Positions 861 to 19,562 of a DNA stretch of 64,000 bases are shown here, in pieces. The stretch is from Neocallimastix sp. 'constans' (taxonomy: Eukaryota). The position numbers were made by a program, and so were the translations under genes. Position 1 is the first letter of the stretch; each line of letters begins with the position of its first letter. The notes under the pieces were generated by a model that worked only from the letters and a program-made list of their open reading frames with translations, had not been told where the DNA came from and made no database searches. The stretch is taken from NCBI GenBank assembly GCA_050613775.1, contig JBODTK010000001.1, forward strand, positions 434,001 to 498,000, in the 5' to 3' direction.

Positions 861-1807
861 TGTAAGAAATAATAATTATTTATTAATAAATAATTACTAT
901 TTCTTAGTCTTTATAATTATTGATAATAATTATAAATTTATTTAAATTATAATTAATTCATACATTGAAATATTATTATCAAATTTATTAAAAATATAAT
1001 TATTCATACACTAAAATAATATTAAAAAATTTATTTAAATAACTATTATATATTCTTTTATTAATATTATTAATTTTATTTAGTTATTCATTTAATTATC
1101 AAGTTAATGTAAACATTAGTTTTATTTATTTTGTACATTGTACATTTAAAAGAACAATTAATAAGTTTCTGTATTTTTTAAAAATAGTTTTATGTTAATA
1201 AGTTTAGATTAGATTTTAAAAATAATATTTAGAAAATAGAATAATTTAGATCATTCCGGTTATTATTTATTTTTCCTTTTATTTGATGATCTAAATTAAA
1301 ATTTAGAAAATCGATATATTAAGGTTTTATCCAAATATAAAATAATATATTTGGTTTTACATAATATATACGATGATCGATATGAATAGAATATCGATCA
1401 AAACTTATCTAGTTTTTTCTTCTAATCTTTTTCTAGATAAGATAATTTTTAAGATTAGAAAAACTTTTTATTTAACCTTAATTTAATAAAAAAATATAAA
1501 AGGGCTCTTGATTTCTCTTTAAGAAATCAAGAGTTATTATTATAAAAATATAGTTATAATAATAGCAATTTTATATTTTAAACTTTAATAAATTAATAAA
1601 ACATTTTATTCAAAAACATATTTTTTAAAACAAATTTATTCAAATATTCCTTCTTTTGCTCTTTGTGTTGTTATTATAATTAATTTTATAATAAACTCGT
1701 TTTTAGGTAAAATTTTTATATTTATTTTATTTCTCAACTTAATGAATTAGTCATTAAGTTGAAGTTAATAATCATATTTAGTGATAGAACTTAGTATGAT
1801 TATTACA
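861..1807 (+). mobile_element. Solo-LTR-like unit A (family 3)
   Basis: TGTAAG...ATTACA termini; flanks taaaa/caaaa; homologous to 1813-2689 (inverted) and 10442-11440; no ORF. Confidence 0.75.
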
Positions 1808-1812
1808 CAAAA

Positions 1813-2689
1813 TGTAATAATTCTATTAAGAACTAACTCAAAATAGAATTATTAACTACAACTTAACGACTAATTCATTAAGTTGAGAAAATAAAATAAA
1901 ATAAATTTTTTTACCTTTAGAGTAGAGTTTATTATAAAATTAATTATAATAATAACACAAAAAGTAAGAAAAGAATTGTTTGTATAAATTGATTTTAAAA
2001 ATATGTTTTTGAATAAAATATTTTTATTAATTTATTAAAGTTAAAAATATAAAATTGTTACTATTATAACTATGTTTTTTATAATAATAACTCTTGATTT
2101 CTCAAAGAGAACTCAAGAGCCTTATTTATATTTTTTTATGAAAATAAGGTTAAATAAGAAAGGGTTTTCTAATCTTAACAAATCTCTTATCTAGGAAAAG
2201 ATTAGATAGAAAAACCTAGATAAGTTTTCGATCGATATTCTATCCATATCGATCATCGCATTAATTAAGTAAAACCGATTACTTCTAAAAAGTAATTGGA
2301 AAAAATCTTAATTAACCGATTTTCCAATCTAATGATCGAAAATAAAAGAATAAAATAATAAAAGATATTTCGATCATATAATTTATCCTTATATTAAAAA
2401 TATAAAATTAAATAGTTAATAAAATACAGAATACATTATAAAATACAGAATACATTATAAAATACAGAATAAAATACAATACAAAATACATTAGTTACAG
2501 TAGAGAATTTAACATATTGTAAATATATTATTTAAAATTAATTAAATAAATTTTGTTAAATTAATGAATATTTAAAATTAAATTAAATAAATTTAATAAA
2601 TATTATATGTAATTAAATAAAGTTATAGTTATAATAACTTAACTAAGAAAATATAATTATTTGTTAGCAAATAATTATAGATTCTTACA
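1813..2689 (-). mobile_element. Solo-LTR-like unit B (family 3), inverted
   Basis: Reverse-complement homolog of units A and C; perfect 5-bp TSD CAAAA (1808-1812 / 2690-2694). Confidence 0.8.
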
Positions 2690-2695
2690 CAAAAA

Positions 2696-3256
2696 TGGTA
2701 CGTTATTTTTATATATTGTACCTTTTATATGATTTGGGGAAAGCAAGTTGTAAAATTATAAAATAATATATTCTAATAAAAGAAATAAATAAAAAAATTA
2801 TAACACAAAATTAATAATAAATTTTTAATAAATAATAATGTGTTACTTTTAAGTCTTTATTTTATTTATAAGTTTTGTTCTTTAAATAAGTACATTTAAT
2901 TTTATTATAACTTTATTATATCTTTAAATTTATATTTTAATAATAATATTAACCAAAATATCCTAAATATTTATTCACCCGAATAAATATTTTATAATTC
3001 CTATTCTAACTATTATATTCTTTTAAAGATATTAAATTATTAAGTTCCTCCTTTGTTAATATTTTATCTTTCACTTATTTTTATACTATAATTTATCTTA
3101 ATTCTTATTGGTTATCTATTAATTAAAATTATTTTTATTAATATTATAATTTTATATACTAATTAAACCTTATACCTATTATAATAAAATAACTAAAGAA
3201 TTATTTATTTTCTTATATTTTTAATAATTTATTCTATTTTAGTGAGTAACGTACCA
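2696..3256 (-). repeat. 3' LTR of element 1
   Basis: Direct repeat of 9878-10438 with one substitution noticed; 10-bp terminal inverted repeat. Confidence 0.95.
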
Positions 3257-3272
3257 AGACGCCCCCACTTTG
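3257..3272 (-). promoter_or_regulatory. Polypurine tract of element 1
   Basis: Minus strand AAAGTGGGGGCGTCT abuts the 3' LTR. Confidence 0.75.
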
Positions 3273-3504
3273 TCTAGACTTCGTCCCTTGAAGTCGTGAT
3301 TTATGGATATAATGGATAAAATTAAAAAAAATGTTATTATATTCTTTAAATATTTTTTTTTTTTTTTTTTTTTTTTTTATATTTGAACTATATAACTATA
3401 TAAATTTTTTTTTTTTTTTTTATATTATATATATACAATTTCATGCAATAATGTACATGTATACATTACATATATGTAATTTTATATTATATTGTATATG
3501 CATA

Positions 3505-3561
<57 letters not shown>

Positions 3562-3947
3562 TAAGTAAATTGTAAAATTATGTTATATTGTTTATAAAAT
3601 TTTATAAAATTATATACTTGTTTACTAATTTAATTTATATATATTCTGTCTATATATCTTTGTATATTTTAATATTATATTTTACTATTCTATTTTACTA
3701 TTCTATTTTACTATTCTATTTTACTATTATATTTTACTATTATATTTTACTATTCTATTTTACTATTATTTTTTTTACTATTATATTTTACTATTATATT
3801 TTACTATTATAATCTATTATTATATTTTTATTATATTTTATTATTTATATCTAATAAAAGAAATTGCTGGATTAGAAATGTGAATTAATTTATTAAACTT
3901 TTCAACAATAGCTAAATGTTTATTTTTGTAAGTTGAAATTCAAACGC

Positions 3948-3980
<33 letters not shown>

Positions 3981-4085
3981 TCGTTATCTATATTCTGAAA
4001 ATTATATAATTGTATTATTTATCTATCTCTATAATTTTTTTTTTAAAGCGTGTTATTGTCAGGAAGTTATAGGTTGTATTAAAAT

Positions 4086-4142
<57 letters not shown>

Positions 4143-4335
4143 TAAAAACCATATTTATTTTATATATATTATTTTTTAATTTATAATTGATAATAAATAT
4201 TAATAAATAAAAAAAAAAAATTCTTATGTAAATATTATTATTATTTTATCTACTTATTAAAAAAAACTTGCTATAAATATTGTTTTAATTATTTAATAAT
4301 TATTGTAAATATATTTATATTATCTGATAAGTATC

Positions 4336-7300
4336 TTAGTCTTCATTTGTGAGGTTTAGTTCCGTAAAGTATGGAATAATATTCTTCAGGTGGATATTAC
4401 GTTCTGCTAGTTCACCAGTCGTTGGGTCGCATACTGTCACTGTGTTTAATTCTCTTTTAACAATTTGTAATGGTCCTGTGAAGAATGGGTCTAGCTTCGT
4501 TCGATTAAATACTTTCACTAATACTAAGTCCCCTGGTTTATAGTCACTTCTCATTCTTTTGATTTGTTTCCTTCTATCGGACCAAAGTTTGTTTGCGGTT
4601 TCAATATTTCTTATGGCTTCCTTTATCCACTTATCATGTATCAAAAATTTTCTGAGCCAGTACTCTTCATCACTTTCCCATTCATTTTTCTTTTCAATAT
4701 TAATGGATAATTCGAAAGGTTGTATATCCCTCCTTCCATACAATAATTCGAAGCTACTGTGTTTTGTAACTTCACTTTTACAAGTACGTAGTGCCCATAA
4801 AGCACTATGTAAAGTCTCATCCCAATGCTTATCTTTTTTTCCCAGGATTCGTAGATACTTCCCAATTTCTTTGTTTCTGTTTTCAACTTCTCCATTCGAG
4901 GCTGGATGGTAAGTTGAAATATAGTGAACATAAACATCGTGTAGATCTAAGAATGCTTTTGTTTTATCTGCGGTGAACTGTGGACCATTGTCTGTTACCA
5001 GTATCTCAGGGATACCATGTCTTGAGAATACTTTCTTTAAAAAGTTTATCACGTCATCTGCTTCCGATGTTACTAATGGTTCAGCCTCTACCCATTTGGT
5101 TAAATAGTCAACTAGAACAATTATAAATCTATTACCTCTTGGAGTTTCTGGTAGGGGTCCAATTAAATCGAGTCCAACTCTTGAGAAAGGGTATCCTGGA
5201 GGAGTGGCATTATCTTCTGGAAATTGATTTAATGTTTGTGGCTTACATGTTTGGCATTTGTAACAACATCGAATATAATTATTAATATCCTTTTTCATAT
5301 TTTTCCAATAATAATCTCTTTTTAGTCTGTTGTATGTTTTATATACTCCCTCATGGCCAATTTGATGAGCTTGATCAATTAATGTTAATTTTTCTTCTAT
5401 GCTTTTCACTATGTACCTTAATTTATCGCCTTGTTTATAATATTCTTTGCCATCAATAATTATTATTCTTTTTTTGATATAATTTTCTATAAATTTATTA
5501 ATACTATTACTATTATTATTATTATTATCACTTATACCATTATCACTATTATCAACTTCATTATTATTGTTATATATAATATTTATTGTTTCTTTAGGTT
5601 TATCAGAAGTTTCCAATCTAGACAGAGCATCAGCTATGACATTCTTCCTCCCCTCTTGATATTCGACTTTAACATTCAAGATGGATAATTCCGTAACCCA
5701 TTTGAGATGTCTACTATTGGTAGGTTCACGATTATTAAATATACCAACAAGCGGTTTATGGTCAGTATAAACTATAGTTATAAAAGAATTACCAGTGATA
5801 AATTGTTTAAATTTCTGAACACAATGGAAGACAGCTTTACCTTCCAGGTCAGTAATACTATAATTTTCTTCCGATTTACTTAATGATCTACTTTCATAAA
5901 AAATAGGAACCTCAAGATTATTTTTATCTCGTTGTAGAAGAACACCTCTTAGTCCATCTCTAGAAGCATCGGTACGTATAATAAATGGTTTAGAAAAATC
6001 TGGGGGAGTTAATATAGGTGCTTGTATTAATTTATTTTTTAATTCTTCAAATGCTTTAATACACTCTTCGGAAAAGTTAAATATCGAGTTCTTCTTTAAA
6101 AGGTAAAACAATGGTTCTGCTATTTGAGCAAAATTTTTAATAAATTTGTGATAATATCCTATAGCACCAAGAAAAGATTTAAGTTGTGTAGTATTTTTAG
6201 GTGGTAACCAATTAACAATTGTTTTTACTTTTTCAGGAATAGGAGAAATACCATCTGTCGAGAGCTTGTGACCAAGTAGTGAAACTTCTTTTTTAAAGAA
6301 TGAACATTTTTCCAAATTAATTTTTAATCCATTGTCTTTTAGTATCTTAAAAACACGACGTAAGTGTAAAATATGTTCATTTATATCTTTAGAAAATATA
6401 ACTATATCATCAATATAAATAAATACACATTCACCGATTAATTCAAAAAATATTTTGTTCATTTCTCTCTGAAAGGTTGCTGGGGCGTTACATAAACCAA
6501 ATGGCATTACTCTGAAGTTGTAATTGCCATACATTGTGGTAAATGCAGTCTTTTCTTTATCTTCGGGAGCCATTGGGATTTGGTGGTATCCTGAAAAAAG
6601 GTCAATCGTAGACAGGATTTGTGAATTATTTCCGATTTGCAAAAGAATTTCATCGATTAAAGGTAATGAATATGAATCTTTAATTGTTATATTGTTTAAT
6701 TTACGGTAATCAACGCACATTCTCCAATCTTTATTATTCTTTTTAGGTACTAAGACAACAGGAAAGGACCAGGCAGAGAAAGACGGTTCAATCAACCGAT
6801 TATTGATTAAAAATGTAAGTATTTCTTTGAGAGCCATAGATTGAGCTTTAGAAAGTTTATATGCTTTCAGTTTTATTGGTTTAGCATTTGGAATTAAATT
6901 AATTCTATGTGGTAATAATTTAGAAGTTCCAAGGTCATCAGTCTTCACAGCTAATATGTCTTTAAAAATTTCGAATAACTCTTTTATAGAGTTCTTATGT
7001 TCACTAGGTACGGCATTAATAATATCATTTATTAGATTTTCTTTAACATTAATAGTTTGTTCTAATTGTTTATCTTTATTCTGAATAACTATAGTAAGTA
7101 GTAAGGGTGTAGATGCATTTGTGTTTTCTTTATTAATTTCTTCTCCTGAGTCAATTGGGTTTTTCAGATTAATATCGTAGTAAAGGTCAGCTAATTTCTT
7201 GTAAGTATTATCTTCATTAATATAATATAATGAGTCATTAACTAGGTTAATATCAAACCTATTTTTCTTTAATGAATCAACTCCAATTAGAATGTCGAAA

Positions 7301-8469
7301 AGGTCATCTTTTTCAATTACTCTAAAATAATCTTGGAAAGTCTTGTCTCCTATAGTTATTTCTAGCTCATATATTTCGGATTCAATTGTCGAGTTTGAAC
7401 AAGCTTGAAAAATAGTTTCTGAGATTCTTCCTATGGCAGGTTTGTTTATATTATATTTTTCTAAAGCAGATCTTGTAATAGCATTAACACTAGCGCAAGT
7501 ATCTAAAAATATCTCACAATTGGTATTTTCAACTTTTCCTTTTACTTTAATTATTTTAAATTTATTAACTATTGTCATCACATTATTAATAGCATTACTT
7601 TTAGGAGTAAGCTTCAAAGCTTTACTAAATGCTGTTCTGAATTTTGGGAATAGATCAAGTAAGTATCCTAATTTAGTAATAACTTCAGTAGATGCAACTT
7701 CTTTTAATAGATCTTGTATTAAATAATCATCAAATTGTTCTATTAATTTAATATGTTTTTCTTTAGATTCTTTGTTGTTACTTAAAGAAGGTGGAGATTT
7801 CTTTGCATTTTCTATAATATCCTTAATTCTTTCTTCATGATTGTTTCTTTTACTCGTTCTAATATTCTTCTCGGCTATAATTGAAGGATCTAAGTACTCC
7901 AATTTTTCGGTTTGATTACTATTAGAGGTAGTTTTATTATTTTTATCTAAAGTAGTATTCTTATCTACTGTATTTGTAGACTTATTTTTATTAATTTCAT
8001 TATTTTGTATACTATCTTCAATATCATCTTTAATCATAATTACATCTTCAATTGGTAAAGTATTAGTTTCCATATTTTGATCCTTTTGGTTATGCACCTT
8101 TTTTCCTTCATTAAGACAAGCATCATATTTGTTGTTATGTCTCATAGCTGCTGTTTGAATCGGCGTCGGATTATTCTTTAATGTATCATTGGATTTCTCT
8201 TTATTATAAGGAATGGAACTTACGTTTTTTTCTTTTTGTTTTCTGACAGCTGGTGCAAGAACTTCAATTGGTTTATTAATATGTAAAGGTTGATAATTTG
8301 TAATTGATTTATTATGGTTATTCATATTATTATTATTAATATATTTATTATTAATATTGTTACTATTATTATTAATATTTCTATTATGATGATAACAATT
8401 ATTAGCATTGTCTTCCATGTGGTTGGTTTGTTTACTGGAAGTCATCCTTCTCCCATTTAGTGGTTTAAA
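4336..8469 (-). CDS. pol: Pol polyprotein of element 1 (protease, RT, RNase H, integrase), probably made by -1 frameshift
   Basis: LDTCAS protease, MPFGLCNAP/YIDD RT, TDAS/TDHKPL RNase H, HHCC, DLIGP/TDNG/E integrase, GPY/F-like TGPLQIV; no chromodomain; frame open up to the slippery site. Confidence 0.95.
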   Translation of the reverse strand, partial: FKPLNGRRMTSSKQTNHMEDNANNCYHHNRNINNNSNNINNKYINNNNMNNHNKSITNYQPLHINKPIEVLAPAVRKQKEKNVSSIPYNKEKSNDTLKNNPTPIQTAAMRHNNKYDACLNEGKKVHNQKDQNMETNTLPIEDVIMIKDDIEDSIQNNEINKNKSTNTVDKNTTLDKNNKTTSNSNQTEKLEYLDPSIIAEKNIRTSKRNNHEERIKDIIENAKKSPPSLSNNKESKEKHIKLIEQFDDYLIQDLLKEVASTEVITKLGYLLDLFPKFRTAFSKALKLTPKSNAINNVMTIVNKFKIIKVKGKVENTNCEIFLDTCASVNAITRSALEKYNINKPAIGRISETIFQACSNSTIESEIYELEITIGDKTFQDYFRVIEKDDLFDILIGVDSLKKNRFDINLVNDSLYYINEDNTYKKLADLYYDINLKNPIDSGEEINKENTNASTPLLLTIVIQNKDKQLEQTINVKENLINDIINAVPSEHKNSIKELFEIFKDILAVKTDDLGTSKLLPHRINLIPNAKPIKLKAYKLSKAQSMALKEILTFLINNRLIEPSFSAWSFPVVLVPKKNNKDWRMCVDYRKLNNITIKDSYSLPLIDEILLQIGNNSQILSTIDLFSGYHQIPMAPEDKEKTAFTTMYGNYNFRVMPFGLCNAPATFQREMNKIFFELIGECVFIYIDDIVIFSKDINEHILHLRRVFKILKDNGLKINLEKCSFFKKEVSLLGHKLSTDGISPIPEKVKTIVNWLPPKNTTQLKSFLGAIGYYHKFIKNFAQIAEPLFYLLKKNSIFNFSEECIKAFEELKNKLIQAPILTPPDFSKPFIIRTDASRDGLRGVLLQRDKNNLEVPIFYESRSLSKSEENYSITDLEGKAVFHCVQKFKQFITGNSFITIVYTDHKPLVGIFNNREPTNSRHLKWVTELSILNVKVEYQEGRKNVIADALSRLETSDKPKETINIIYNNNNEVDNSDNGISDNNNNNSNSINKFIENYIKKRIIIIDGKEYYKQGDKLRYIVKSIEEKLTLIDQAHQIGHEGVYKTYNRLKRDYYWKNMKKDINNYIRCCYKCQTCKPQTLNQFPEDNATPPGYPFSRVGLDLIGPLPETPRGNRFIIVLVDYLTKWVEAEPLVTSEADDVINFLKKVFSRHGIPEILVTDNGPQFTADKTKAFLDLHDVYVHYISTYHPASNGEVENRNKEIGKYLRILGKKDKHWDETLHSALWALRTCKSEVTKHSSFELLYGRRDIQPFELSINIEKKNEWESDEEYWLRKFLIHDKWIKEAIRNIETANKLWSDRRKQIKRMRSDYKPGDLVLVKVFNRTKLDPFFTGPLQIVKRELNTVTVCDPTTGELAERNIHLKNIIPYFTELNLTNED

Positions 8470-9638
8470 GATTTGTTGATCATTCCCCTTTCTTCCATTT
8501 CCGCTAATTGTTTGAACGAATAGGGGCAGTTTGAAGCCTTATGCCCATTTTGGAAACAACGGAAACAAGTAGTTTTCCTATTTTGGTAGTCTTTATTAAA
8601 ACTTTTATTATATTCCTTATTTGGAATAACCCCTGGATTTCTATTTATGGTAGTTGTAAGTATATTAGCATCAATACTGTTATTATTGTCATATACGTTA
8701 CTATTTTGAGAAACTGCGGTAGCTATATTGTTGGTATTGTTATCGTTACTAATATTATTGTTTTTATAATTGTAATTAGAGTTATTACTATTTTGTATTC
8801 TATTAGGTAAATAATTATAATTATAGTTGTTGTTATCCATGATATTATTCATATTTTGATTGACGTTAGTATTATAATTATTATTGAGGTTCATAAATCT
8901 TGAACCATTACTAAAGTTTCGGTTGTTCCTTCTAAAAGGTGGACGAAAATTATTATTGTAAACATTTCTATTAGTATTTTGATTTATATTATGTTGATAA
9001 GAAGGTTCTCCATAAAAATTCTGATAAAATGGGTGGTTTATTATAGGACTATCCAAATTTTGCACAAACATTAAATTAGATCTATTTTTATTATTATCTT
9101 GCCCAATATTACTGATTATTTCTTTTTCAGCTTCTTCGGATACTTCAGCTACCTTAAAAGCTTCAGATAAAGTTTCGCATTCGGTTGTCATAACTCTTGA
9201 ACAAGGAAAGACCCGTGTACTTATAGCAGTAGTATAGTCCTTTATTGAAATTAGTTTTTGATATTCTCTTGGTAGGCCTTTATATAATATTTTGTATCTA
9301 TGATTAAATTTTTTAATAGTTTCTTTATTATTAATTTTTAATGATTTTAATACTGCACATTTATCATTTGGTGTGATGTGCAAGTACTCCTCAACAGCAG
9401 CTTGGATTTCTTTGAAGCTGGGATATCTAACTTCGTTTCCATTCTTACTTTTTAAAGAGTTTAAGGCCCCATGCATGTCTTCTTCGACTGCTTCTTTGGC
9501 CCAGACAAAAATTCTTCTTGGTTCCACAACATCGTAGAGCTCCATCACTCTGACGAATTCATGCATCCATCCATCAACATCTTTTCCATAGTCGATGAGA
9601 TTTGGTAATGCTTTCTGTAATTTGGCAGCGTCAATCAT
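8457..9638 (-). CDS. gag: Gag of element 1
   Basis: 393-aa ORF upstream of pol with CCHC knuckle CFRCFQNGHKASNC. Confidence 0.9.
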   Translation of the reverse strand: MIDAAKLQKALPNLIDYGKDVDGWMHEFVRVMELYDVVEPRRIFVWAKEAVEEDMHGALNSLKSKNGNEVRYPSFKEIQAAVEEYLHITPNDKCAVLKSLKINNKETIKKFNHRYKILYKGLPREYQKLISIKDYTTAISTRVFPCSRVMTTECETLSEAFKVAEVSEEAEKEIISNIGQDNNKNRSNLMFVQNLDSPIINHPFYQNFYGEPSYQHNINQNTNRNVYNNNFRPPFRRNNRNFSNGSRFMNLNNNYNTNVNQNMNNIMDNNNYNYNYLPNRIQNSNNSNYNYKNNNISNDNNTNNIATAVSQNSNVYDNNNSIDANILTTTINRNPGVIPNKEYNKSFNKDYQNRKTTCFRCFQNGHKASNCPYSFKQLAEMEERGMINKSLNH

Positions 9639-9856
9639 GATAAATAGAATTTATTAAAAAAAGTAATATAAAATAGTTATATTTATTTATAATATAATAA
9701 TTGTTTTGTAAAAAAAAATGAAGAAATAAAAAATAAAATTTGTTTTATAATAATATAATAAATGCTTTTGTACTATAAATATATAAAATAAAAAAATGAA
9801 TGAATTAAAGTAAAGTAATTTCTCTTATTATTTTCATATTATTTTATCTTGCTTCC

Positions 9857-9873
9857 GCCCGGATTCTCCACCA
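9857..9873 (-). promoter_or_regulatory. Primer-binding site of element 1 (tRNA-Ala type, different isoacceptor from the local gene)
   Basis: Minus strand TGGTGGAGAATCCGGGC, 4 nt from the LTR; complementary to an ...ATTCTCCACCA tRNA end typical of tRNA-Ala. Confidence 0.75.
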
Positions 9874-9877
9874 ATTT

Positions 9878-10438
9878 TGGTACGTTATTTTTATATATTG
9901 TACCTTTTATATGATTTGGGGAAAGCAAGTTGTAAAATTATAAAATAATATATTCTAATAAAAGAAATAAATAAAAAAATTATAACACAAAATTAATAAT
10001 AAATTTTTAATAAATAATAATGTGTTACTTTCAAGTCTTTATTTTATTTATAAGTTTTGTTCTTTAAATAAGTACATTTAATTTTATTATAACTTTATTA
10101 TATCTTTAAATTTATATTTTAATAATAATATTAACCAAAATATCCTAAATATTTATTCACCCGAATAAATATTTTATAATTCCTATTCTAACTATTATAT
10201 TCTTTTAAAGATATTAAATTATTAAGTTCCTCCTTTGTTAATATTTTATCTTTCACTTATTTTTATACTATAATTTATCTTAATTCTTATTGGTTATCTA
10301 TTAATTAAAATTATTTTTATTAATATTATAATTTTATATACTAATTAAACCTTATACCTATTATAATAAAATAACTAAAGAATTATTTATTTTCTTATAT
10401 TTTTAATAATTTATTCTATTTTAGTGAGTAACGTACCA
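9878..10438 (-). repeat. 5' LTR of element 1
   Basis: Direct repeat of 2696-3256. Confidence 0.95.
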
Positions 10439-10441
10439 AAA

Positions 10442-11440
10442 TGTAAGAATCTATAATTATTTTTAACAAAATAATTATATTTTCTTAGTTAGGTTATAAT
10501 TAATATAACTTTTATTTAGCTCATATTTCATTTATACAATTAATTATAATTAATAATTTATTTAATTATATATTAAAATTTTATTTAGTTTAATATTAAA
10601 AATTTATTTAATCAAATAATTTTTATACATTTAAAATAATATTAAATTTATTTAATTATTCACTTAATTATTAAATTTATTAGTTTTAGTTTTCTCTCAC
10701 TTATTAAATCATAAACTAAAACACTATTCTGTATTTTATCATGTATTCTGTATTCTATCATGTATTCTGTATTGTATTAATCATGTATTTTATTATTAAT
10801 GTATTGTTTTATATTTTTTATGTAAAGTTCTATAAAATAGAACTAAATAGATTAAATTTTAAATTTTATGATCGAAATAATTTTCATTATTTTATTCTTT
10901 TATTTTCGATCATTATATTAGATTAAGTAATCGGTTAATTAAGGTTTTTCCAATTACTTCTTAAAAGTAATCGGTTTTACTTAATTAACGCGATGATCGA
11001 TATGGATAGAATATCGATCAAAAAACTTATCTAGGTTTTTCTTCTAGTCTTTTCCTAGATAAGAGATTTGTTAAGATTAGAACCCCTTTTGATTTTAACC
11101 TTATTTTGACAAAAAAGTATAAATAAGGCTCTTGAGTTCTCTTTGAGAAATCAAGAGTTATTATTATAACAATTATAATATAATAATAATAACAATAAGT
11201 TTTAACATTTAAAATTTTTAATAAATAATAAAACAAATTATTTTAATAAAACAAATTTTATAATTAAAACTTTTCCTTATCAATTTTAGTGTTTCGTCTA
11301 TTATAATTCGTTATAATAAACTCGATAATTAGAAAGAACCATAGGTAAGTATGATTCTTTTCTAAACCTTTAATATTAGCAGTTAGAGCTAATATTAATG
11401 ATTAATAATTTAATTATAATTTTTTAATTAAATTATTACA
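10442..11440 (+). mobile_element. Solo-LTR-like unit C (family 3)
   Basis: TGTAAGAATC...ATTACA; homologous to A and B with a divergent 3' end; A-run flanks. Confidence 0.8.
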
Positions 11441-11446
11441 AAAAAA

Positions 11447-11750
11447 TGTTAGGGTTTTAGAGAATTAAATAAAAATAAAGTAAGGAAACACAAATTTTAT
11501 TTATTTATTTATTTTATTTATTTATTTTATTAAATTTATTTGATGATATTTAAAAATTAGTAGCAAAATTTACAACTATTTATACTTTTTTCAAGGCATA
11601 AAAGTTGTTCTTGCCACTAAATTACATTTTATTTATTTTTTTTTTTTTTTTTTTTATAAAAACTATTAAATTTAAATTGATTTTTATAATTAATTATATA
11701 AAATTTAATTATAACAATATAAATAAAATACATTTATAATATTAATAAAA

Positions 11751-11809
<59 letters not shown>

Positions 11810-12308
11810 TTATTTATTTAAAAATATCTAAAATATTACTAATAAGAATTTATTTAATTGGCTATAATTTTTATTACAATCTGTTAAAATATTCAAATAA
11901 AAATAAAAATACTATTCTAATATAAAGGTTTTTAATAAAATAAAATATTTTTCAATATAAAATAAAACATTTCGATATAAAATTTTATAATAAAAAGTTA
12001 AAATATAATATATAAATTTTTAATTATCAATATATAAAAATATTATTAATATAAATTTTCATTATTAATATAAAAAAAAAAATAAGATTTATTATTAATA
12101 TTGCTAATATAAGTTTTAAATATATAAAAATATTACTTTTAATATAAGATTTAATATAAAAATATAAAGTTTAATATAATATTTGATTTAATTTTTGATC
12201 TTTGGATTTAAAAATTTATTAAAGTACAAAAATAATAATGTACACATAATGTATTAGAAATAAATCGTAGATTTAATTAAGAATGCATTATTTAGTACAT
12301 TCTTATCA
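11447..12308 (-). repeat. 3' LTR of element 2
   Basis: Direct repeat of 18617-19477; only homopolymer-length differences noticed; preceded on the minus strand by GTCGGGGCATCT. Confidence 0.95.
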
Positions 12309-12326
12309 AGATGCCCCGACGAAGAC

Positions 12327-15300
12327 TCAAGCTTCTCTGTAAGCGGAGTTAAACTTTACTAAATTTTTAAAGTGAACATTCCTATCGAGTTGCTTTCCAG
12401 TCTTCTGATCGATTAGGGTTGCCGTGTTGAATTGAATTTTTAAAATTTTAAATGGTCCATTGTAATATGGTTCTAGCTTAGTGCGGCTAAAGTTTCTAAC
12501 AAGAACAAGATCACCAGCCTTTAATTCTTTTCCCTTTTTCATACTTATTTGTTCTTCTCGTCTTGTTGCCCAATACTTGTTAGCATTCTTCACATTTTCG
12601 CATGCTTCTCTAGTCCATTGATAATGACGAACAAATTTTTCCATTAAAATTTCATCATATGATTTACCTGCATTTTCAATTGTTCTTATGGCTATATCAT
12701 AAGGCTGTTGGTCTTCTCTTCCATATACTAATTCAAAACTAGAATGTCCAGTAGCTGTATTTTTGGTAGTTCGAAGTGCCCATAAAGCAGAAGGTAAAAC
12801 TTCATCCCAATCTTGATTTTTCCTTCCTAATAAACGAAGTAATTTTCCAATTTCTTTATTTCGATTTTCAGTAAGGCCATTTGATTCAGGGTGGTAAGTA
12901 GCTACAAATTTAACATATACATCATAAAGATCAAGAAAGATTTTAGTCATATCAGAAGTGAATTGGACTCCATTATCAGTAGTAATAACTTGAGGGACAC
13001 CATGTCTTGCAAAAACGTTTATTAAAAATTTAATTATATCAGAGGAAGTTATGTTTTCAGTGGGTTCGGCTTCAACCCATTTGGTAAAGTAATCAACAGT
13101 TACTATAATATATTGATTATTATTTCTTGTTTTTGGTAACGGTCCTATAATATCTAATCCTAAATGCACAAAGGGACCCTCCACTTTAGTTGGATGGTTT
13201 TCGGTTGGTTCTGGATATGGTTGAGGACGATTTAACTGGCATTTTTCACAATTACTAACAATTCTTTTGATATCTTTAATCATATGATTCCAATAAAAGT
13301 TTTTCTTAAGTCTTTGATATGTTTTGTAATATCCTTCGTGGCCAATATTATGAGCTTCTAAAATTAATTTAAACCTTTCATTTTCGTCCGTTATTAATTT
13401 TCTATAATTTCCATTGTCGATAAAGTAATCTTCACCATCAATAACAGTAAACTTTTCATTAATAAATTCCTTTATAACTTTAGATAATAATTCTTCATTA
13501 TTTCCATTAGTAATTTTTGTTAATAATATCTTTCTCTCTTCCTTACTTTTCATTCTTGAAAGAGCATCAGCTAACACATTCTTTTTGCCTGATTCATATT
13601 TTATATTAATTCCGAGCATACTAGCGGTTAGACACCATCTTGTTTGCCTTGCATTCAAAGGTTCTTTATTCTTAAATAAACCAACTAATGGTTTATGATC
13701 TGTGTAAATAGTTGTAGGTAATGGATTTCCTTCAATATAAGATTTAAATTTAGTCATACAGTAAAACAAAGCGGTTCCTTCTAAATCGGTAATACCATAA
13801 TTCTTTTCAGCTTTCTTTAAACTTCTACTTATAAAGTGTATTGGATGCTCCTTACCGGTTTCTTCTTCTTTTTGTAAAAGAACTCCACCAATTCCATTAT
13901 ACGAAGCATCAGTTCTAATGATAAAAGGTTTGTCAAATGACGGAAATTTTAGAATAGGTGCATTGATTAATTTTTCTTTTAGGAGTTCAAAGCTTTCTTG
14001 TTGTTCTTTATTCCATTCATATTTGGTATTCTTTTTCAATAATTTACATAAAGGTGAGGTAATTTGAGCATATTTAGGAATAAAATCACGATAATATCCC
14101 ACTGCTCCTAAAAATGATCTTAATTCATGAAGTGATGAAGGGGCTTCCCACTTCTTAATAGCTGTTATCTTACTTTCCATGGGACTTAATCCTTTAGTAG
14201 TAAGTTTGTGACCTAATACATCAACTTCAGTTTGAAGAAAATGGCACTTTTCAATATTAATTTTTAATTTGTTTTCTTTAAATACTTCTAATACTTGTTT
14301 AATATGAATTAAATGTTCTTCGATACTTTTTGAATAGATCAAAACATCATCAATAAATACGTAAACAAATTCACCAATAAAAGGGAATAAAATTTTATTC
14401 ATTTCTCTTTGGAAGGTTGAGGGAGCTCCAGTAAGTCCAAAAGGCATAACCTTAAATTGATAATTTCCAAACTTAGTAGTGAAAGTGGTTACTTCAACGC
14501 TTTCTTCATCCATTAAGATTTGGTGAAAACCAGAAAATAAATCAAGAGTTGTAAATATTTTAGCTCCTCCGAGACTATCAAAAATTCCATCTATATATGG
14601 AACTGAATAAGAATCTTTTTCTGTCATATCATTGACTTTTCGGTAGTCAATGCACAAGCGCCACTTTCCATTGTGTTTTAGAATAAGTACTACTGGAGAT
14701 GACCATTCTGAACAGGATGGTTCTATCAATCCTTTCTTAATAAGTTTTGTAAGTTCTTCTTTTAAGATATCTGATTTTAATTTAGTTAACCTATAACTTC
14801 TTAATTTTACTGGCTTTGCATTTGCTTTTAAACGGATCTTATGTGGTGAAAGTTTAGAAGGAGTTAGTTCTTCTGTTGAAGTGGCAACTATGTCAATCAT
14901 TTCTTTGAGAATTTTAATAATTTGTTCTTTATAATCTTTATTTAAGGTACTTAAAAATTCATCACTCTCAATAAATTCCATTGGAGTTAATTCCTTTATA
15001 ATTTCCTTTTCATTATTCGTTTCTTTAACTTTTCTAATAGTGCAAATTATACTTTCTTCATCATAATATTGATTATTTATTTTAGCTATTTCTTCGTATT
15101 CACTTTCTGACAAAAGTTTACATAAACTGTTTAAGGTCGGATGAATAAATAAACAATGATCGATTTGAGTTTTAAAGTTTATTAACATATCATAAAAAGA
15201 GTCTTCTTTCTCAATAATTCTAAAGTCCGCATTAAATTCATAATTATTAATTTTTACTGGTAATCGAACAATAATTCCTTCCGAGTATTCTTCATCTTGT

Positions 15301-16337
15301 GTTGCTAGTTGGATTCTTCCACGACTTTTTCCAACTGTTTCATATTCACCAGGTAATTTATCAAAATACTGCTTAGTAACGATGCTTAGGTTACTACAAG
15401 AATCAATTAAAAGTTTTCCTAGTACTCCGTCAACACTTGCATCAACCATTGCTAAGTCTTCTTCGGCTACTTCATTACTTTTACTTATGTAGCTATGATC
15501 ATAGTTATTCACTAATAAAGTTCGTGCTATTACATTGTCTACAGTTCCAATTATTTTAGATTTTTCTAACTTTAAACCTTGAGTTAATTGTGAACGAATT
15601 TTCGGACATGCATTCAAGAGTTGACCTATCGTAATACTGGATTTAAGATTATTTAAATCATCCATAATATTGTAAGGTTCTTTATTATTCATCATTTTGA
15701 TATTCCTTTTTACTAACTGAGTATTTTCATTATTAGTTTCTTTAGTTTTTGTTGAAATTAATTTTTCCAAAGTATTAGTTTTATTTTGTTGATTATCTTT
15801 ATTCATTTCTATATCTTCTATTTCATTATCGATTACAAGTATATCTTCAGATTCAACTTTTTTCTTTCCTTTTGATGAATAATTGTTGTTTTCTTCTTTA
15901 CTTTCTCTTACTCTTGTTATATTTCTTAATTCCTTTTCTTTTTGTTTTTCTTTGTTAATATTTGGTTGAGTTAAAATTGAAGGAAGTATTTGATTTTTAT
16001 AAACTTTATTTGGTTTATTATGTAGCTCATTTTCTTTCTTCTTTCTTAAAGCAGGAGTTGCGAAAGGACGTGGATTATCTTTTAAACTTTTATGTACTTT
16101 CTTGGAATTATTTTCTTCCTTTTCGCTGTTATTATCATTCATTTTTCTTTTTATAGCATTTATAATGATATTATCCTCACTTTCAGTTGTGTCACTAAAA
16201 TCAGATTCTTCAGATTCTTTATTAAAGGAATTATTATCAATTGGGGTATTCTTGGTAAAAGTATTATTTTGTAAATTATTTAATGAAGCTATTGTTTTGT
16301 CATTGGGAGTGCTTCTGCTCCCATTTAGAAGTTTAAA
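12327..16337 (-). CDS. pol: Pol polyprotein of element 2, probably made by -1 frameshift
   Basis: IDSCSN protease, MPFGL/FIDD RT, TDAS RNase H, HHCC and DDE integrase, YNGPFKIL; frame stays open upstream of the ATG at 16142 to the TTTAAAC site. Confidence 0.95.
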   Translation of the reverse strand, partial: FKLLNGSRSTPNDKTIASLNNLQNNTFTKNTPIDNNSFNKESEESDFSDTTESEDNIIINAIKRKMNDNNSEKEENNSKKVHKSLKDNPRPFATPALRKKKENELHNKPNKVYKNQILPSILTQPNINKEKQKEKELRNITRVRESKEENNNYSSKGKKKVESEDILVIDNEIEDIEMNKDNQQNKTNTLEKLISTKTKETNNENTQLVKRNIKMMNNKEPYNIMDDLNNLKSSITIGQLLNACPKIRSQLTQGLKLEKSKIIGTVDNVIARTLLVNNYDHSYISKSNEVAEEDLAMVDASVDGVLGKLLIDSCSNLSIVTKQYFDKLPGEYETVGKSRGRIQLATQDEEYSEGIIVRLPVKINNYEFNADFRIIEKEDSFYDMLINFKTQIDHCLFIHPTLNSLCKLLSESEYEEIAKINNQYYDEESIICTIRKVKETNNEKEIIKELTPMEFIESDEFLSTLNKDYKEQIIKILKEMIDIVATSTEELTPSKLSPHKIRLKANAKPVKLRSYRLTKLKSDILKEELTKLIKKGLIEPSCSEWSSPVVLILKHNGKWRLCIDYRKVNDMTEKDSYSVPYIDGIFDSLGGAKIFTTLDLFSGFHQILMDEESVEVTTFTTKFGNYQFKVMPFGLTGAPSTFQREMNKILFPFIGEFVYVFIDDVLIYSKSIEEHLIHIKQVLEVFKENKLKINIEKCHFLQTEVDVLGHKLTTKGLSPMESKITAIKKWEAPSSLHELRSFLGAVGYYRDFIPKYAQITSPLCKLLKKNTKYEWNKEQQESFELLKEKLINAPILKFPSFDKPFIIRTDASYNGIGGVLLQKEEETGKEHPIHFISRSLKKAEKNYGITDLEGTALFYCMTKFKSYIEGNPLPTTIYTDHKPLVGLFKNKEPLNARQTRWCLTASMLGINIKYESGKKNVLADALSRMKSKEERKILLTKITNGNNEELLSKVIKEFINEKFTVIDGEDYFIDNGNYRKLITDENERFKLILEAHNIGHEGYYKTYQRLKKNFYWNHMIKDIKRIVSNCEKCQLNRPQPYPEPTENHPTKVEGPFVHLGLDIIGPLPKTRNNNQYIIVTVDYFTKWVEAEPTENITSSDIIKFLINVFARHGVPQVITTDNGVQFTSDMTKIFLDLYDVYVKFVATYHPESNGLTENRNKEIGKLLRLLGRKNQDWDEVLPSALWALRTTKNTATGHSSFELVYGREDQQPYDIAIRTIENAGKSYDEILMEKFVRHYQWTREACENVKNANKYWATRREEQISMKKGKELKAGDLVLVRNFSRTKLEPYYNGPFKILKIQFNTATLIDQKTGKQLDRNVHFKNLVKFNSAYREA

Positions 16338-17230
16338 GACTTTTTGGAATATATTTCTTTTTTATTTTTTTCCATAATCTTATTTAATTGAGGGCAATAG
16401 TATGAGTAATGACCTTCTTCCTTACAGAAGAAGCAAGTTTTAACAGATAAATTTCTCATTTTCTGGGTTGATTCTTCTATAATATCTTGAGGTTTCAGTT
16501 TATTATTTGTTTGACTTGTTTGGAAAGTTTCGTTTCTTCTTTTAGGATAAAGTCTTGAAGTAGTACTGTTTTGATTATTTTGATTATGCTGGGAATTATT
16601 AACATTATAGGTATTAATATTATTGTTCCTTACAGAAAGTCTATCTACTTTCTCGGCAATTTTGAAAGCTTTCTCCATACTTATATCATCTTTAAGGGAT
16701 AATTTCTTCCAGGCTTCATAATTATTTTGAATAGAGTCAATATAATCTAGTACACCAATGCGCTTTCTTCTCTTTTTATCAAGTTTAGTGTACAAAGTTC
16801 TATATCTTACATTAAAGTCTTTAATCTTTTCGTTTCTTTTAATTCGCATTGCACGAAGTTCTTTAAGAAGTAAATTTTGGTCTTCTTTAATACCGTAAAA
16901 ATTTTCAAGACTTGAAATAATTTTTTCAAGAGAAGGAAATTTATCATCATCAACATTTTCTTCTTCATCATCTTCTTCTTCATCTGATGAATCATCACTT
17001 TCATCATCACTATCTTCTCCCAAATCTTCAATAACGCGTTGTACTTCACCAGAGCTGGTAAGTAAACAAGCATTAAATATTGTTTCCGGATCTGTGATAC
17101 CTTGTATCTTGATCCAAAGTTTTAATTCAGTAGCCCAGGACTTTATATCTAAATTGTCCTTGCTAAGCTTCACTATGTCTCGTAATTCTTTCTTTAATTC
17201 TTTAAAACTTAAAGTACTTTTAGTAGACAT
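16325..17230 (-). CDS. gag: Gag of element 2
   Basis: 301-aa ORF with CFFCKEEGHYSYYC knuckle and an acidic insert. Confidence 0.9.
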   Translation of the reverse strand: MSTKSTLSFKELKKELRDIVKLSKDNLDIKSWATELKLWIKIQGITDPETIFNACLLTSSGEVQRVIEDLGEDSDDESDDSSDEEEDDEEENVDDDKFPSLEKIISSLENFYGIKEDQNLLLKELRAMRIKRNEKIKDFNVRYRTLYTKLDKKRRKRIGVLDYIDSIQNNYEAWKKLSLKDDISMEKAFKIAEKVDRLSVRNNNINTYNVNNSQHNQNNQNSTTSRLYPKRRNETFQTSQTNNKLKPQDIIEESTQKMRNLSVKTCFFCKEEGHYSYYCPQLNKIMEKNKKEIYSKKSLNF

Positions 17231-17410
17231 TTCGTTTTTAGTTAATAATTTTTTTATTGTAAATTAACGAGGTTATTAAATACGAATAAATTTGAAAGTC
17301 CAACTTTAAAAATATAATTTAACAAGTAATTTAATATCGAATCAAATTTTAAAACAATATATCTTAGTAATTTTTGAAAATAATAATTTTATTTGCTTTC
17401 TTTAGTAAGT

Positions 17411-17602
17411 ATAAGCTCGAAATCCTTATCGACAACTTAGTAGAAATTATAAAGCACGAGGTTCTTTTCGACTACTTTTTTAAGAATAATTTTAAGTTCG
17501 AAATCTTTATCGACAACTTAATAGAATAATTTTAAGTTCGAAATCTTTATCGACAACTTAATAGAATATTTTTCAAGCTCGAAATCTTTATCGACCACTT
17601 GA
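17411..17602. repeat. Five ~40-bp hairpin-forming tandem repeats in the element 2 leader
   Basis: Unit ttaagttcgaaatctttatcgacaacttaatagaataatt. Confidence 0.85.
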
Positions 17603-18592
17603 ATTTTGTAATTTAGTATATTTGTAGTAATAAATTTAGAAGCAAAGTTTTATTTATTATTTTCACCTTTCAAAAATTTTTCTTTTTAAACGATAAATAT
17701 TGTATTGTTATAGCTAATAAAATTATTAATTAATTATAATTATTAAATACAAAAAAAATAATCTTTATTGTCGTACAATCTGATAGTACACACTGTCTGA
17801 CGTGCAGCTTACCTAATGGTGTCATGCCACGCGTGTGCCACGATTACTATATTCAATATAAAATATAGCAGTTCAGAGCCCACTAGCCCAATTACTATGT
17901 AGGATAAACTTAATCCGATAATCTATGTACGGAATAAAAAAATTTTAAAAGTATTCAATAATATTTTTATTAACTAATAAAAATTAACTAAAAACACAAT
18001 ATTTTCAAAGTAAATTAAGATTCTATTACAGGAATTATATAACAAATAAAGTACCAGTAATAAAAAAAAATAAAAAAAATTTAAATGGCGAAGTTAGCCA
18101 AAGTCTGATACTTTATATAATAAAGTGCCTTATAACTAGCACAAAGAAAAGTAAAAAAAATTATATAAAAAAAACAATCTTACGCCTTCGGTGACGTAAG
18201 CTCCTTATTCGCCAGTGCTTGGAAAGTACCCGCACCTTCGTGTGTTGAAACGTTGAAGGTTGAACTATTATTACCGGGTCGGTAACCAAATACCTTCGTC
18301 TACTTTCCAATTAATCTCCAAATTAACTACTATTCAATAACCTACTATGAATAGAGTTAATTTGTTGCTATCTGAGAATACACTGTGTATGAGCTCTATC
18401 CGCTCCTTGTTATAATTTTACAAAATTTGTTTTTTTAGAATCTTAATTTTACTTATTTAAAAAAAAATTTTTTTATATATATATCAAACAAGCGCCATGG
18501 GTTAATCAAAGGATTAACGACTTACTTGTTTATCAATATAAAATAAAAAAAATTAAAAAAATCTATGTTATTTACTATTATTTCTATTTAAT

Positions 18593-18610
18593 TCCCCGAT
18601 ATCTCCACCA
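18593..18610 (-). promoter_or_regulatory. Primer-binding site of element 2, tRNA-Ala(TGC)
   Basis: Plus strand TCCCCGATATCTCCACCA equals the last 15 nt of the tRNA at 19491-19562 plus CCA. Confidence 0.95.
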
Positions 18611-18616
18611 TATAAA

Positions 18617-18920
18617 TGTTAGGGTTTTAGAGAATTAAATAAAAATAAAGTAAGGAAACACAAATTTTATTTATTTATTTATTTTATTTATTTATTTTAT
18701 TAAATTTATTTGATGATATTTAAAAATTAGTAGCAAAATTTACAACTATTTATACTTTTTTCAAGGCATAAAAGTTGTTCTTGCCACTAAATTACATTTT
18801 ATTTATTTTTTTTTTTTTTTTTTTTATAAAAACTATTAAATTTAAATTGATTTTTATAATTAATTATATAAAATTTAATTATAACAATATAAATAAAATA
18901 CATTTATAATATTAATAAAA

Positions 18921-18978
<58 letters not shown>

Positions 18979-19477
18979 TTATTTATTTAAAAATATCTAA
19001 AATATTACTAATAAGAATTTATTTAATTGGCTATAATTTTTATTACAATCTGTTAAAATATTCAAATAAAAATAAAAATACTATTCTAATATAAAGGTTT
19101 TTAATAAAATAAAATATTTTTCAATATAAAATAAAACATTTCGATATAAAATTTTATAATAAAAAGTTAAAATATAATATATAAATTTTTAATTATCAAT
19201 ATATAAAAATATTATTAATATAAATTTTCATTATTAATATAAAAAAAAAAATAAGATTTATTATTAATATTGCTAATATAAGTTTTAAATATATAAAAAT
19301 ATTACTTTTAATATAAGATTTAATATAAAAATATAAAGTTTAATATAATATTTGATTTAATTTTTGATCTTTGGATTTAAAAATTTATTAAAGTACAAAA
19401 ATAATAATGTACACATAATGTATTAGAAATAAATCGTAGATTTAATTAAGAATGCATTATTTAGTACATTCTTATCA
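18617..19477 (-). repeat. 5' LTR of element 2
   Basis: Direct repeat of 11447-12308. Confidence 0.95.
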
Positions 19478-19490
19478 AAAAATTTGTGCT

Positions 19491-19562
19491 GGGGATATAA
19501 CTCAGTGGTAGAGTGCTTGCTTTGCATGCAAGAAGCCTCAGGTTCGATCCCCGATATCTCCA
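19491..19562 (+). tRNA. tRNA-Ala, anticodon TGC
   Basis: Cloverleaf: GGGGATA/TATCTCC acceptor with G3:U70, anticodon arm CTTGC-TT-TGC-AT-GCAAG, GGTTCGATCC B box, T-run terminator; one A:C mismatch in the T stem. Confidence 0.93.

Follow-up and report, generated by a model that had tools for sequence, protein, structure and literature searches.

A stack of LTR-type units upstream of a tRNA-Ala gene in an anaerobic gut fungus, probably formed by targeted integration

The stack upstream of tRNA-Ala(TGC)

The window studied here is a stretch of 64 kb from Neocallimastix sp. 'constans', and its sole tRNA gene according to ARAGORN and Rfam is tRNA-Ala(TGC), at 19491-19562. Upstream of this gene five units of the LTR type, belonging to three families, adjoin end to end in both orientations, in the order U1, U2, E1, U4, E2, tRNA; none is nested inside another. 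All five units have TG...CA termini. They are separated by spacers of 5, 6, 3 and 6 bp (CAAAA, CAAAAA, AAA and AAAAAA), and 13 bp lie between the end of E2 and the start of the tRNA. The un-nested arrangement, the C/A spacers and the 13-bp distance had been proposed in the original prediction, and we recovered the same spacer letters and measured the same distance for E2. The features are:

856-860, +: left copy of the U1 target-site duplication, with one C/T difference from the right copy
861-1807, + (strand relative only): U1, family-A unit of 947 bp, TG...CA, probable solo LTR
1808-1812, +: spacer of 5 bp; serves U1 as its right duplication and U2 as its left one
1813-2689, -: U2, family-A unit of 877 bp, probable solo LTR, inverted relative to U1 and U4
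2690-2695, +: spacer of 6 bp; right duplication of U2, overlapped by the left duplication of E1
2696-10438, -: E1, full-length Ty3/gypsy element of 7,743 bp
10439-10441, +: spacer of 3 bp; the U4 duplication takes in the terminal A of the E1 LTR
10442-11440, +: U4, family-A unit of 999 bp whose core is conserved and rich in hairpins; probable solo LTR
11441-11446, +: spacer of 6 bp, all A; right duplication of U4, overlapped by the left duplication of E2
11447-19477, -: E2, full-length Ty3/gypsy element of 8,031 bp
19478-19490, +: gap of 13 bp between E2 and the tRNA; its first 5 bp are the E2 duplication
19491-19562, +: tRNA-Ala(TGC) gene with A and B boxes (Rfam RF00005, 64.4 bits) and a T5 run at 19567-19571

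The possibility that the tRNA gene is a pseudogene was rejected on the basis of its score (64.4 bits), intact boxes, terminator and exact match to a primer site (see below).

The three family-A units (U1, U2 and U4) have their first 8 and last 9 bases in common and are 69-78% identical. They are probably solo LTRs left behind by LTR-LTR recombination. Since family A carries no coding sequence in the stack, we can only infer that it belongs to the Ty3/gypsy class; among the viral, metagenome and genome contigs searched, no locus was found in which a family-A LTR is joined to a coding region. MITEs or TRIMs were rejected as an alternative identity, as the terminal inverted repeat measures just 5 bp and the start motif occurs once per unit. 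Similarly, U2 is not a truncated unit with a mutated end, as it runs from 1813 to 2689 with TG...CA termini. In one of four runs, a single contig has the end of one family-A unit followed, 5 bases on, by the start of another, which hints at another stack.

Two full-length elements of one clade

E1 and E2 each have two LTRs with TG...CA ends, a primer-binding site, a polypurine tract and a target duplication, and in both gag and pol are intact. The order within pol is protease, reverse transcriptase (RT), RNase H and integrase with a GPY/F motif (Pfam; the protease was matched in E1 only). Both the LTR-element structure and the pol order identify E1 and E2 as Ty3/gypsy elements (Metaviridae). 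Their parts are:

2696-3256 and 9878-10438: E1 LTRs, 561 bp, one substitution
4336-8538, -: E1 pol frame, 1,400 stop-free codons; protease, RT, RNase H and integrase (HHCC, core, GPY/F)
8457-9650, -: E1 gag frame, with a CCHC knuckle at its end
9856-9873, -: E1 primer-binding site, 4 nt inside of the 5' LTR; its first 9 nt are common to the E2 site
11447-12308 and 18617-19477: E2 LTRs, 862/861 bp, no substitution, one indel in a poly-T run
12327-16361, -: E2 pol frame, 1,344 stop-free codons; RT, RNase H and integrase, ending ~43 residues past GPY/F
16325-17263, -: E2 gag frame, with a CCHC knuckle
18593-18610, -: E2 primer-binding site; its 18 nt are all complementary (18 of 18) to the tRNA-Ala(TGC) 3' end plus CCA

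In both elements gag and pol are two overlapping frames, and the slippery heptamer TTTAAAC lies just ahead of the gag stop, with pol in the -1 frame; Pol is thus predicted to be made by a -1 frameshift. Judging from its primer site, E1 may be primed by a tRNA-Ala isoacceptor. The pol of E1 and that of E2 gave no Pfam match to a chromodomain, so that the elements do not qualify as chromoviruses of the Skipper or MAGGY type. The match of the E2 integrase to the Ty3 Gag-Pol (1547 residues) extends to Ty3 residue 1444, and 7 residues of the E2 integrase remain after it; among the full-length clade members listed, the tail past GPY/F comprises ~40-65 residues. Contig depths, a crude estimate, suggest that E1 and E2 are present in tens to more than 100 copies.

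In a tree constructed without Ty3 and DGLT-A sequences, E1 and E2 fall within one well-supported clade, of which about 100 protein clusters were seen and whose named members all come from anaerobic gut fungi. On this tree each forms a deep branch of its own within that clade, and the two are related lineages. The integrase of E2 scores higher against that of foamy virus (113 bits) than against that of Ty3 (84 bits), and there is therefore no sign of a special kinship between E2 and Ty3. A search for a named relative such as Ylt1 among the longer proteins returned only animal, plant and unnamed elements, 32-43% identical.

Target site, insertion order and origin of the stack

When the units are taken away from the right, a single empty site is restored, and the corresponding left-to-right insertion order gives distances to the tRNA of 14, 14, 13, 14 and 13 bp. 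The offset is then constant per family, 14 bp for family A and 13 bp for E1 and E2, with 5-bp duplications at -14..-10 and -13..-9 relative to the tRNA, respectively. The duplications and distances that had originally been read from the right (13, 14, 13, 14, 14 bp) are hereby reproduced, with two departures: the C/T mismatch of U1, and U4, which has either a 4-bp duplication or a one-base homopolymer error (a lost A). Out of 120 possible orders, left-to-right is the only one in which every insertion occurs 13-14 bp from the tRNA, and it has the minimum cost (2, versus 4 for the reverse order). Because all the spacers are A-rich, the duplications are weakly informative. Judged by the scars alone, 60 of the 120 orders are equally good. 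The sole step fixed by the scars is that E1 inserted before U4, since the U4 duplication contains the terminal A of the E1 LTR; this step agrees with growth of the stack from the tRNA side. As predicted, the LTRs of the tRNA-proximal element carry no substitution (apart from the poly-T indel in E2) and those of the other full-length element carry one, but dating the insertion order by LTR divergence was rejected, as a difference of one substitution (1 versus 0) does not amount to a gradient. The proposed chronological stack therefore holds for the step from E1 to U4, while the remainder of the order is left unconstrained.

For a single site, the chance probability of lying 10-35 bp upstream of the one tRNA is ~6e-4. 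The remaining 44 kb of the window contain 2,599 A5/T5 positions, and a search of these 44 kb for other copies of the LTRs or of pol gave low-complexity matches only.

We consider it probable that integration targeting of the Pol III start region at tRNA-Ala(TGC) is what explains the stack at this one locus. This is the best reading because a single site was used by three families, at the distance known from Ty3 and DGLT-A and with an offset, 13 or 14 bp, that is specific to the family. In the left-to-right order all five insertions fall within a narrow interval at the tRNA start. The earlier proposal of several diverged Ty3/gypsy lineages with near base-precise targeting is borne out in the 13-14 bp of all five units under the left-to-right order and in the class of E1 and E2, whereas it has to be narrowed in that one locus is concerned, the class of family A is an extrapolation, and E1 and E2 belong to the same clade.

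Mechanistically, the integration complexes probably attach to Pol III machinery that occupies the tRNA-Ala gene, and for that reason each newcomer would land beside the tRNA, displacing the older copies upstream. The landmark would be the internal promoter of the tRNA (recognized by TFIIIC, then TFIIIB), and the site would therefore stay usable even once the upstream DNA has been replaced. Targeting through TFIIIB in the form known from Ty3, the route originally suggested, is unlikely, since the integrases of E1 and E2 stop where the chromodomain would begin and have no room for it. Accepting this from the sequences, the tether would not be a chromodomain-Brf1 contact as in Ty3; more probable candidates are a contact of RNase H or the integrase N-terminus with TFIIIC, by analogy with DGLT-A, or an SH3-loop contact with TBP. 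Extrapolating from this one locus, the preference for tRNA sites may hold across the genome.

The stack could also have started with a founder that alone was tRNA-targeted, or arrived by chance, after which the elements that followed were drawn to the A-rich end of an LTR already in place, with no growth from the tRNA side. The equal fit of half of the orders agrees with this, as do the overlap of the U4 duplication with the last base of an LTR and a locus from another rumen sample (L050), where TG-starting units abut an LTR end on a contig without a tRNA. Nevertheless we hold it to be unlikely: despite 18.6 kb of A-rich element DNA no unit interrupts another or adjoins the inner end of an LTR, strict outward growth (the reverse order) costs 4 versus 2, and the constant offset per family from the tRNA would be a coincidence. 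Even less weight can be given to an ordinary hot spot, in which nucleosome-free A-tract DNA next to an active tRNA gene draws elements that mostly go elsewhere, with no protein tether. Although every duplication is an A-run and the elements are seemingly high-copy, such a hot spot is at odds with the 1-bp precision across five events and three families, and the 2,599 equivalent positions elsewhere in the window were not used.

It is very improbable that, rather than to Pol III genes generally, the elements go to the genes of their own primer tRNA, for instance by co-localisation of the tRNA or cDNA. The primer site of E2 is the exact 18-nt complement of tRNA-Ala(TGC), that of E1 starts with the same 9 nt, and a relative (L045) shares 15 nt of it; other clade members (L050 and L054), however, have different primer sites. 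We know of no precedent for primer-linked targeting, and Ty3, whose primer is the initiator Met tRNA, targets all tRNA genes regardless of that primer; both count against this explanation. Moreover, N. californiae has 39 genes for tRNA-Ala with the TGC anticodon (PMC6883316 Table S3), and a match between the primer site and the neighbouring tRNA is hence not very unlikely. Least credible of all is an assembly artefact made of joined repeats. The region is highly repetitive and none of the listed contigs spans 9800-12400, but a single coherent empty site results when the junctions are undone, each of the five units has TG...CA ends and duplications that match, and the family-A units, being only 69-78% alike, are not collapsed copies.

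Targeted integration at the tRNA start was also looked for beyond the window. The genome contigs yielded 78 loci, nine of which lie inside the E1/E2 clade in the tree. At none of the 78 was a tRNA found beside a clade element, on contigs that are short and rarely reach the outer LTR flank; the sole tRNA among these loci sits in a non-clade locus. In the five genomes with such contigs, 11 of 157 tRNA matches were inspected; these look prokaryotic and none adjoins an LTR, and LTR searches in the same genomes gave low-complexity matches only. In the metagenome contigs the family-A terminal motif had 44 matches, all of them chance by BLAST, and thus no real copy. The viral contigs gave no match to the family-A core motif and no confirmed relative with E1 pol, E2 pol or the clade alignment. 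Contigs from 4 of 24 runs over 9800-12400 showed abundant variants, with no readable flanks at the LTR ends, and none of these short contigs from four runs spans that stretch of the stack.

Significance and comparison with known systems

Anaerobic gut fungi form an early-diverging phylum with large, repeat-rich genomes. Their LTR retrotransposons are reportedly catalogued by Navaratna et al. (2024; doi 10.1016/j.fgb.2024.103897), whose abstract is not known to mention tRNA targeting; that catalogue probably includes E1 and E2. That gut-fungal study aside, our search found no report of tRNA targeting in gut fungi or chytrids, as the original prediction had supposed for gut fungi. The behaviour as such is likely the one already known from yeasts and amoebae, and the gut-fungal case would be new. 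In Table 1 of a review of targeted integration, ascomycete yeasts and dictyostelid amoebae are the only hosts with LTR elements that target tRNA starts, and the review explains such targeting as an adaptation to compact genomes (PMC5911963). If the targeting is real, it would represent another, probably independent, origin in an early-diverging fungal phylum, and the large repeat-rich host genome would test the compact-genome explanation. More tentatively, at somewhat less than even chance in our estimation, targeting of the Pol III start site would have arisen in a whole Ty3/gypsy clade found solely in anaerobic gut fungi, as an invention separate from those of Ty3 and DGLT-A; it would work without a chromodomain, have a family-specific one-base register and have evolved in a large repeat-rich rather than a compact genome. 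As the integrases of E1 and E2 lack the tether of Ty3, a direct comparison would become possible of the same site found by different contacts. Gut fungi still lack a tool for site-specific integration; E1 and E2 are intact and nearly undiverged, and intact clade members could, if the targeting is real, serve as natural safe-harbour integration vectors for these hard-to-engineer fungi.

Among the known systems, DGLT-A of Dictyostelium resembles the stack in several respects. It inserts 13-33 bp upstream of the tRNA's mature sequence in either orientation in D. discoideum, and as DGLT-A.1 at 13-16 bp in D. purpureum (PMC5006619 Table 1), a range that includes the 13-14 bp observed here; repeated insertion at one tRNA gene has been described as well (PMC5006619 Table 1 footnote). 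DGLT-A is a Ty3/gypsy element without a chromodomain, with an integrase tail of 32 residues past GPY/F and many solo LTRs (PMC5006619, PMC6101501), and its RNase H / integrase N-terminus binds the TFIIIC subunit Tfc4 (PMC6101501). The integrases of E1 and E2 are built like that of DGLT-A, with a short tail and no chromodomain, since they end where the TFIIIB-binding chromodomain of Ty3 would begin, and the stack likewise has probable solo LTRs and repeated insertions at one tRNA gene. E1 and E2 differ in having a fungal host, LTRs of 561 and 862 bp, and gag and pol in two frames linked by a predicted -1 frameshift; DGLT-A has a single gag-pol ORF, LTRs of 160-600 bp and an amoeba as its host.

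Ty3 of S. cerevisiae shares with E1 and E2 the domain order and an insertion position that is almost base-precise with respect to the Pol III start region, and it is the best PDB match for the RT-RNase H of the elements here. The 5-bp duplication and the use of both orientations are common to Ty3, DGLT-A and the stack (PMC8632968, PMC5911963). In contrast, residues 446-511 of the Ty3 integrase form a vestigial chromodomain, which binds Brf1, as described in the structural account (PMC8632968; PDB 7Q5B), whereas that of E2 ends before this position, and Ty3 gag-pol uses a +1 frameshift (PMC6101501), whereas pol of E1 and E2 is in the -1 frame behind TTTAAAC. Finally, the same review table places further fungal Ty3/gypsy elements just upstream of tRNA genes: Tj1 of Schizosaccharomyces japonicus, Tca8/beta of Candida albicans and Tyl3, Ylt1 and Tyl6 of Yarrowia lipolytica (PMC5911963 Table 1). 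These are all ascomycete elements, and their likeness to the elements of the gut-fungal stack lies in the position given in that listing.

Anatomy of the stack

Directly upstream of a tRNA-Ala(TGC) gene, the only tRNA found in the window, five LTR units lie end to end, a feature that is real and clean. Their limits were set by self-comparison and inspection of the junctions; the GC content of the window is ~17-23%.

Units of the stack and other features of the window
861-1807: U1, family-A unit
1813-2689, inverted: U2, family-A unit
2696-10438: E1, full Ty3/gypsy element
10442-11440: U4, family-A unit
11447-19477: E2, full Ty3/gypsy element
Spacers, left to right: CAAAA, CAAAAA, AAA, AAAAAA
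19491-19562: tRNA-Ala(TGC), 13 bp beyond the end of E2
26389-28221: CotH kinase gene
29622-33083 and 43060-44961: ankyrin-repeat ORFs
47331-48857: 508-codon ORF without Pfam match

The C/A-rich spacers of the original prediction are present at the junctions, including that of U1 and U2, and the LTR pairs also agree with it, with one substitution in 561 bp for E1 and none in 861 bp (besides one poly-T indel) for the tRNA-proximal E2. Both elements are directed away from the tRNA (n=2). The stack is preceded, 57 bp to its left, by a tandem array of 54-bp AT-rich units (128-803; 6% GC in this region). Just 3' of the tRNA, at ~19700-21400, short broken frames resemble decayed gag and had no match among the proteins and loci compared.

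The 8 bases at the start and the 9 at the end are the same in all family-A units, which are 77, 69 and 78% identical to each other. A family-A coding region was found neither in the window nor in any related locus retrieved; the TG...CA ends, 5-bp duplications and length suggest that all three are solo LTRs. The best-conserved 170-175 nt of this LTR (~1365-1535 in U1, 2075-2250 on the minus strand in U2, 10985-11160 in U4) contain several hairpins (z = -4.3 to -6.8 on either strand relative to dinucleotide-shuffled controls; three sequences) and are predicted to form what is possibly an R/U5 RNA structure.

The gag frame of E1, like that of E2, contains a CCHC knuckle; their pol frames are unbroken and encode RT, RNase H and integrase, arranged as in Ty3/gypsy elements. 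In both elements, a TTTAAAC heptamer immediately precedes the gag stop, and pol follows in the -1 frame. The heptamer also stands ahead of a similar downstream motif in seven of 13 related loci, several of the others not covering the junction; a -1 frameshift signal between gag and pol is predicted across the clade.

Gag-pol junctions with TTTAAAC, stop and conserved purine-rich motif
Window: 8457-8475, 16325-16345
Loci on genome-collection contigs: L049, L050, L053, L054, L055, L130, L136

All 18 nt of the E2 primer site are complementary to the 3' terminus, CCA included, of the adjacent tRNA-Ala, and the first 9 nt recur in the E1 site. Primer sites vary within the clade: that of L045 has a 15-nt match to this tRNA-Ala, while those of L050 and L054 differ and are presumably Arg-like and Lys-like. 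A short conserved inverted repeat lies just before the polypurine tract (window 3277-3296; L050:5207, L052:3099, L054:30). Where pol runs into this repeat it ends, in many homologs, in a TSRDEV-like peptide; being the repeat read through by pol, this peptide probably arises as a side effect of a signal at the nucleic-acid level.

Order of insertion, and probable targeting versus chance

The units were removed in all 120 orders, permitting duplications of 4-6 bp. The minimum cost of 2, made up of one C/T mismatch at U1 plus, at U4, either a duplication of 4 bp or the loss of one A, was reached by 60 orders, and the other 60 cost 4, among them the right-to-left order. The only constraint from the scars is that E1 preceded U4, because the U4 duplication takes in the terminal A of E1. 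The left-to-right order is among the best and is the sole one in which every insertion falls 13-14 bp from the tRNA (14 for the three family-A units, 13 for E1 and E2), which bears out the predicted distances. Most simply, then, the stack may have grown from the tRNA side, a reading that agrees with the one test that the scars allow. The chronology originally proposed is thus compatible with the scars, E1 before U4 included, but shares the minimum with half of all orders.

A preference for A-tracts alone does not explain five insertions within one base, since the other 44 kb of the window hold 2,599 A5/T5 positions and yet no further copy of the stack LTRs or pol, only low-complexity matches. 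A given stack would fall by chance within 10-35 bp ahead of the one tRNA in the window with a probability of ~6e-4. The genome of the gut fungus N. californiae is near 190 Mb in size. With its ~880 tRNA genes, summed from the published counts (PMC6883316 Table S3), the genome-wide chance is smaller still. This number offers targets enough for some hundreds of insertions. The same table, with 39 genes for this anticodon, is very skewed (154 Met, 110 Arg(AGA), 91 Cys, none at all for several major codons). Amplification may have affected the dispersed genes for minor tRNAs too and would then multiply the targets, and those missing from the counts may reside in unassembled arrays. Targeting of the Pol III start region is in our judgement quite probably the best explanation of this single locus.

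Relatives and other copies

With the E2 integrase region as query, 101 proteins matched at E < 1e-73, followed by a gap to 1e-46. The named members are gut-fungal (Pecoramyces/Orpinomyces), and the 90% cluster that contains E2 pol includes Neocallimastix lanati; of 60 gag matches, the 7 with a named source came from N. lanati, N. 'constans', Pecoramyces and Anaeromyces. An RT-RNase H tree (FastTree, midpoint root) was built from 146 sequences that cover part of the homologs and include neither Ty3 nor DGLT-A; 4/78 candidate proteins were removed for too short an alignment. The gut-fungal sequences, 49 in all, group there as a single clade supported at 1.0. E1 and E2, 55.5% identical, are on two deep branches inside it. 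The several diverged lineages that had been proposed are in this respect present, but within one clade, and family A has no coding region to place.

Searches of viral and metagenome contigs gave no genuine match. Among genome-collection contigs, clade elements turned up on isolated contigs within bacterial and archaeal bins from rumen and faeces, one of them (L136) 99% identical to E1; no tRNA lies beside them on these contigs, which at 2.6-6.5 kb seldom reach the outer flank. Several such prokaryote bins hold eukaryotic LTR-retrotransposon contigs (L045-L055, L093, L103, L129-L137) and are contaminated. Of the 24 sequencing runs listed, 20 (6 of them RNA) contain at least 50% of the words sampled from window 12300-22200. 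Contigs of four runs over window 9800-12400 show many LTR variants; in run X5, individual contigs within the E1 LTR and at the E2 LTR-PPT junction exceed rare variants in depth ~60- and ~150-fold, a crude sign of high copy number.

On one contig of run X3, a family-A end is followed after 5 bases by a family-A start, and in L050 two TG-starting units follow the 3' LTR of a clade element head-to-tail (5246-6251, 268-bp period, T-rich spacer). Neither contig carries a tRNA, that of L050 being too short to show one. These hint at stacks elsewhere, for L050 perhaps in another gut fungus; either could be an assembly effect.

Comparison with known tRNA-targeting elements

In line with the original statement on gut fungi, no report of tRNA targeting in them or in chytrids was found in the full-text literature searched, a scope that takes in few subscription papers. 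Navaratna et al. 2024, cited in PMC13728883, deal with gut-fungal LTR elements and may bear on novelty. Targeting of the tRNA start is itself already known from other groups: Table 1 of PMC5911963 lists the Ty3/gypsy elements Ty3, Ty3p, Tj1, Tca8, Tyl3, Ylt1, Tyl6 and DGLT-A, with ascomycetes or dictyostelids as hosts throughout. Nor is stacking as such new, since repeated insertion at one tRNA gene is recorded for Dictyostelium (PMC5006619 Table 1 footnote).

Ty3, with a target duplication of 5 bp, is described as finding its site via integrase contacts with TBP and, through a chromodomain at residues 446-511, with Brf1 (PMC8632968). The E2 integrase aligns with Ty3 Gag-Pol (1547 residues) as far as residue 1444 and stops 7 residues beyond that point; with Ty3 RT-RNase H ending near residue 1009, the chromodomain lies past the aligned part. 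Full-length clade members terminate ~40-65 residues past GPY/F, and no Pfam match to a chromodomain was obtained in E1 or E2. For DGLT-A, an integrase tail of 32 residues and insertion 13-33 bp upstream of tRNA genes are given (13-16 bp for D. purpureum DGLT-A.1; PMC5006619), and its RNase H contacts the TFIIIC subunit Tfc4 (PMC6101501). Given the same build and a similar distance, we infer that gut-fungal intasomes would dock on Pol III factors assembled at the internal promoter of the tRNA, more probably either as DGLT-A does or by way of an SH3 loop and TBP, and would cut at a family-specific distance. As the internal promoter survives each insertion, the site could be used again.

Like E1 and E2, DGLT-A has a short integrase tail and no chromodomain, but it has one gag-pol frame where they have two, whereas Ty3 has a chromodomain and a +1 frameshift, neither of which occurs in E1 or E2. 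The stack seems to behave as DGLT-A and Ty3 do, yet it departs from defining features of both families.
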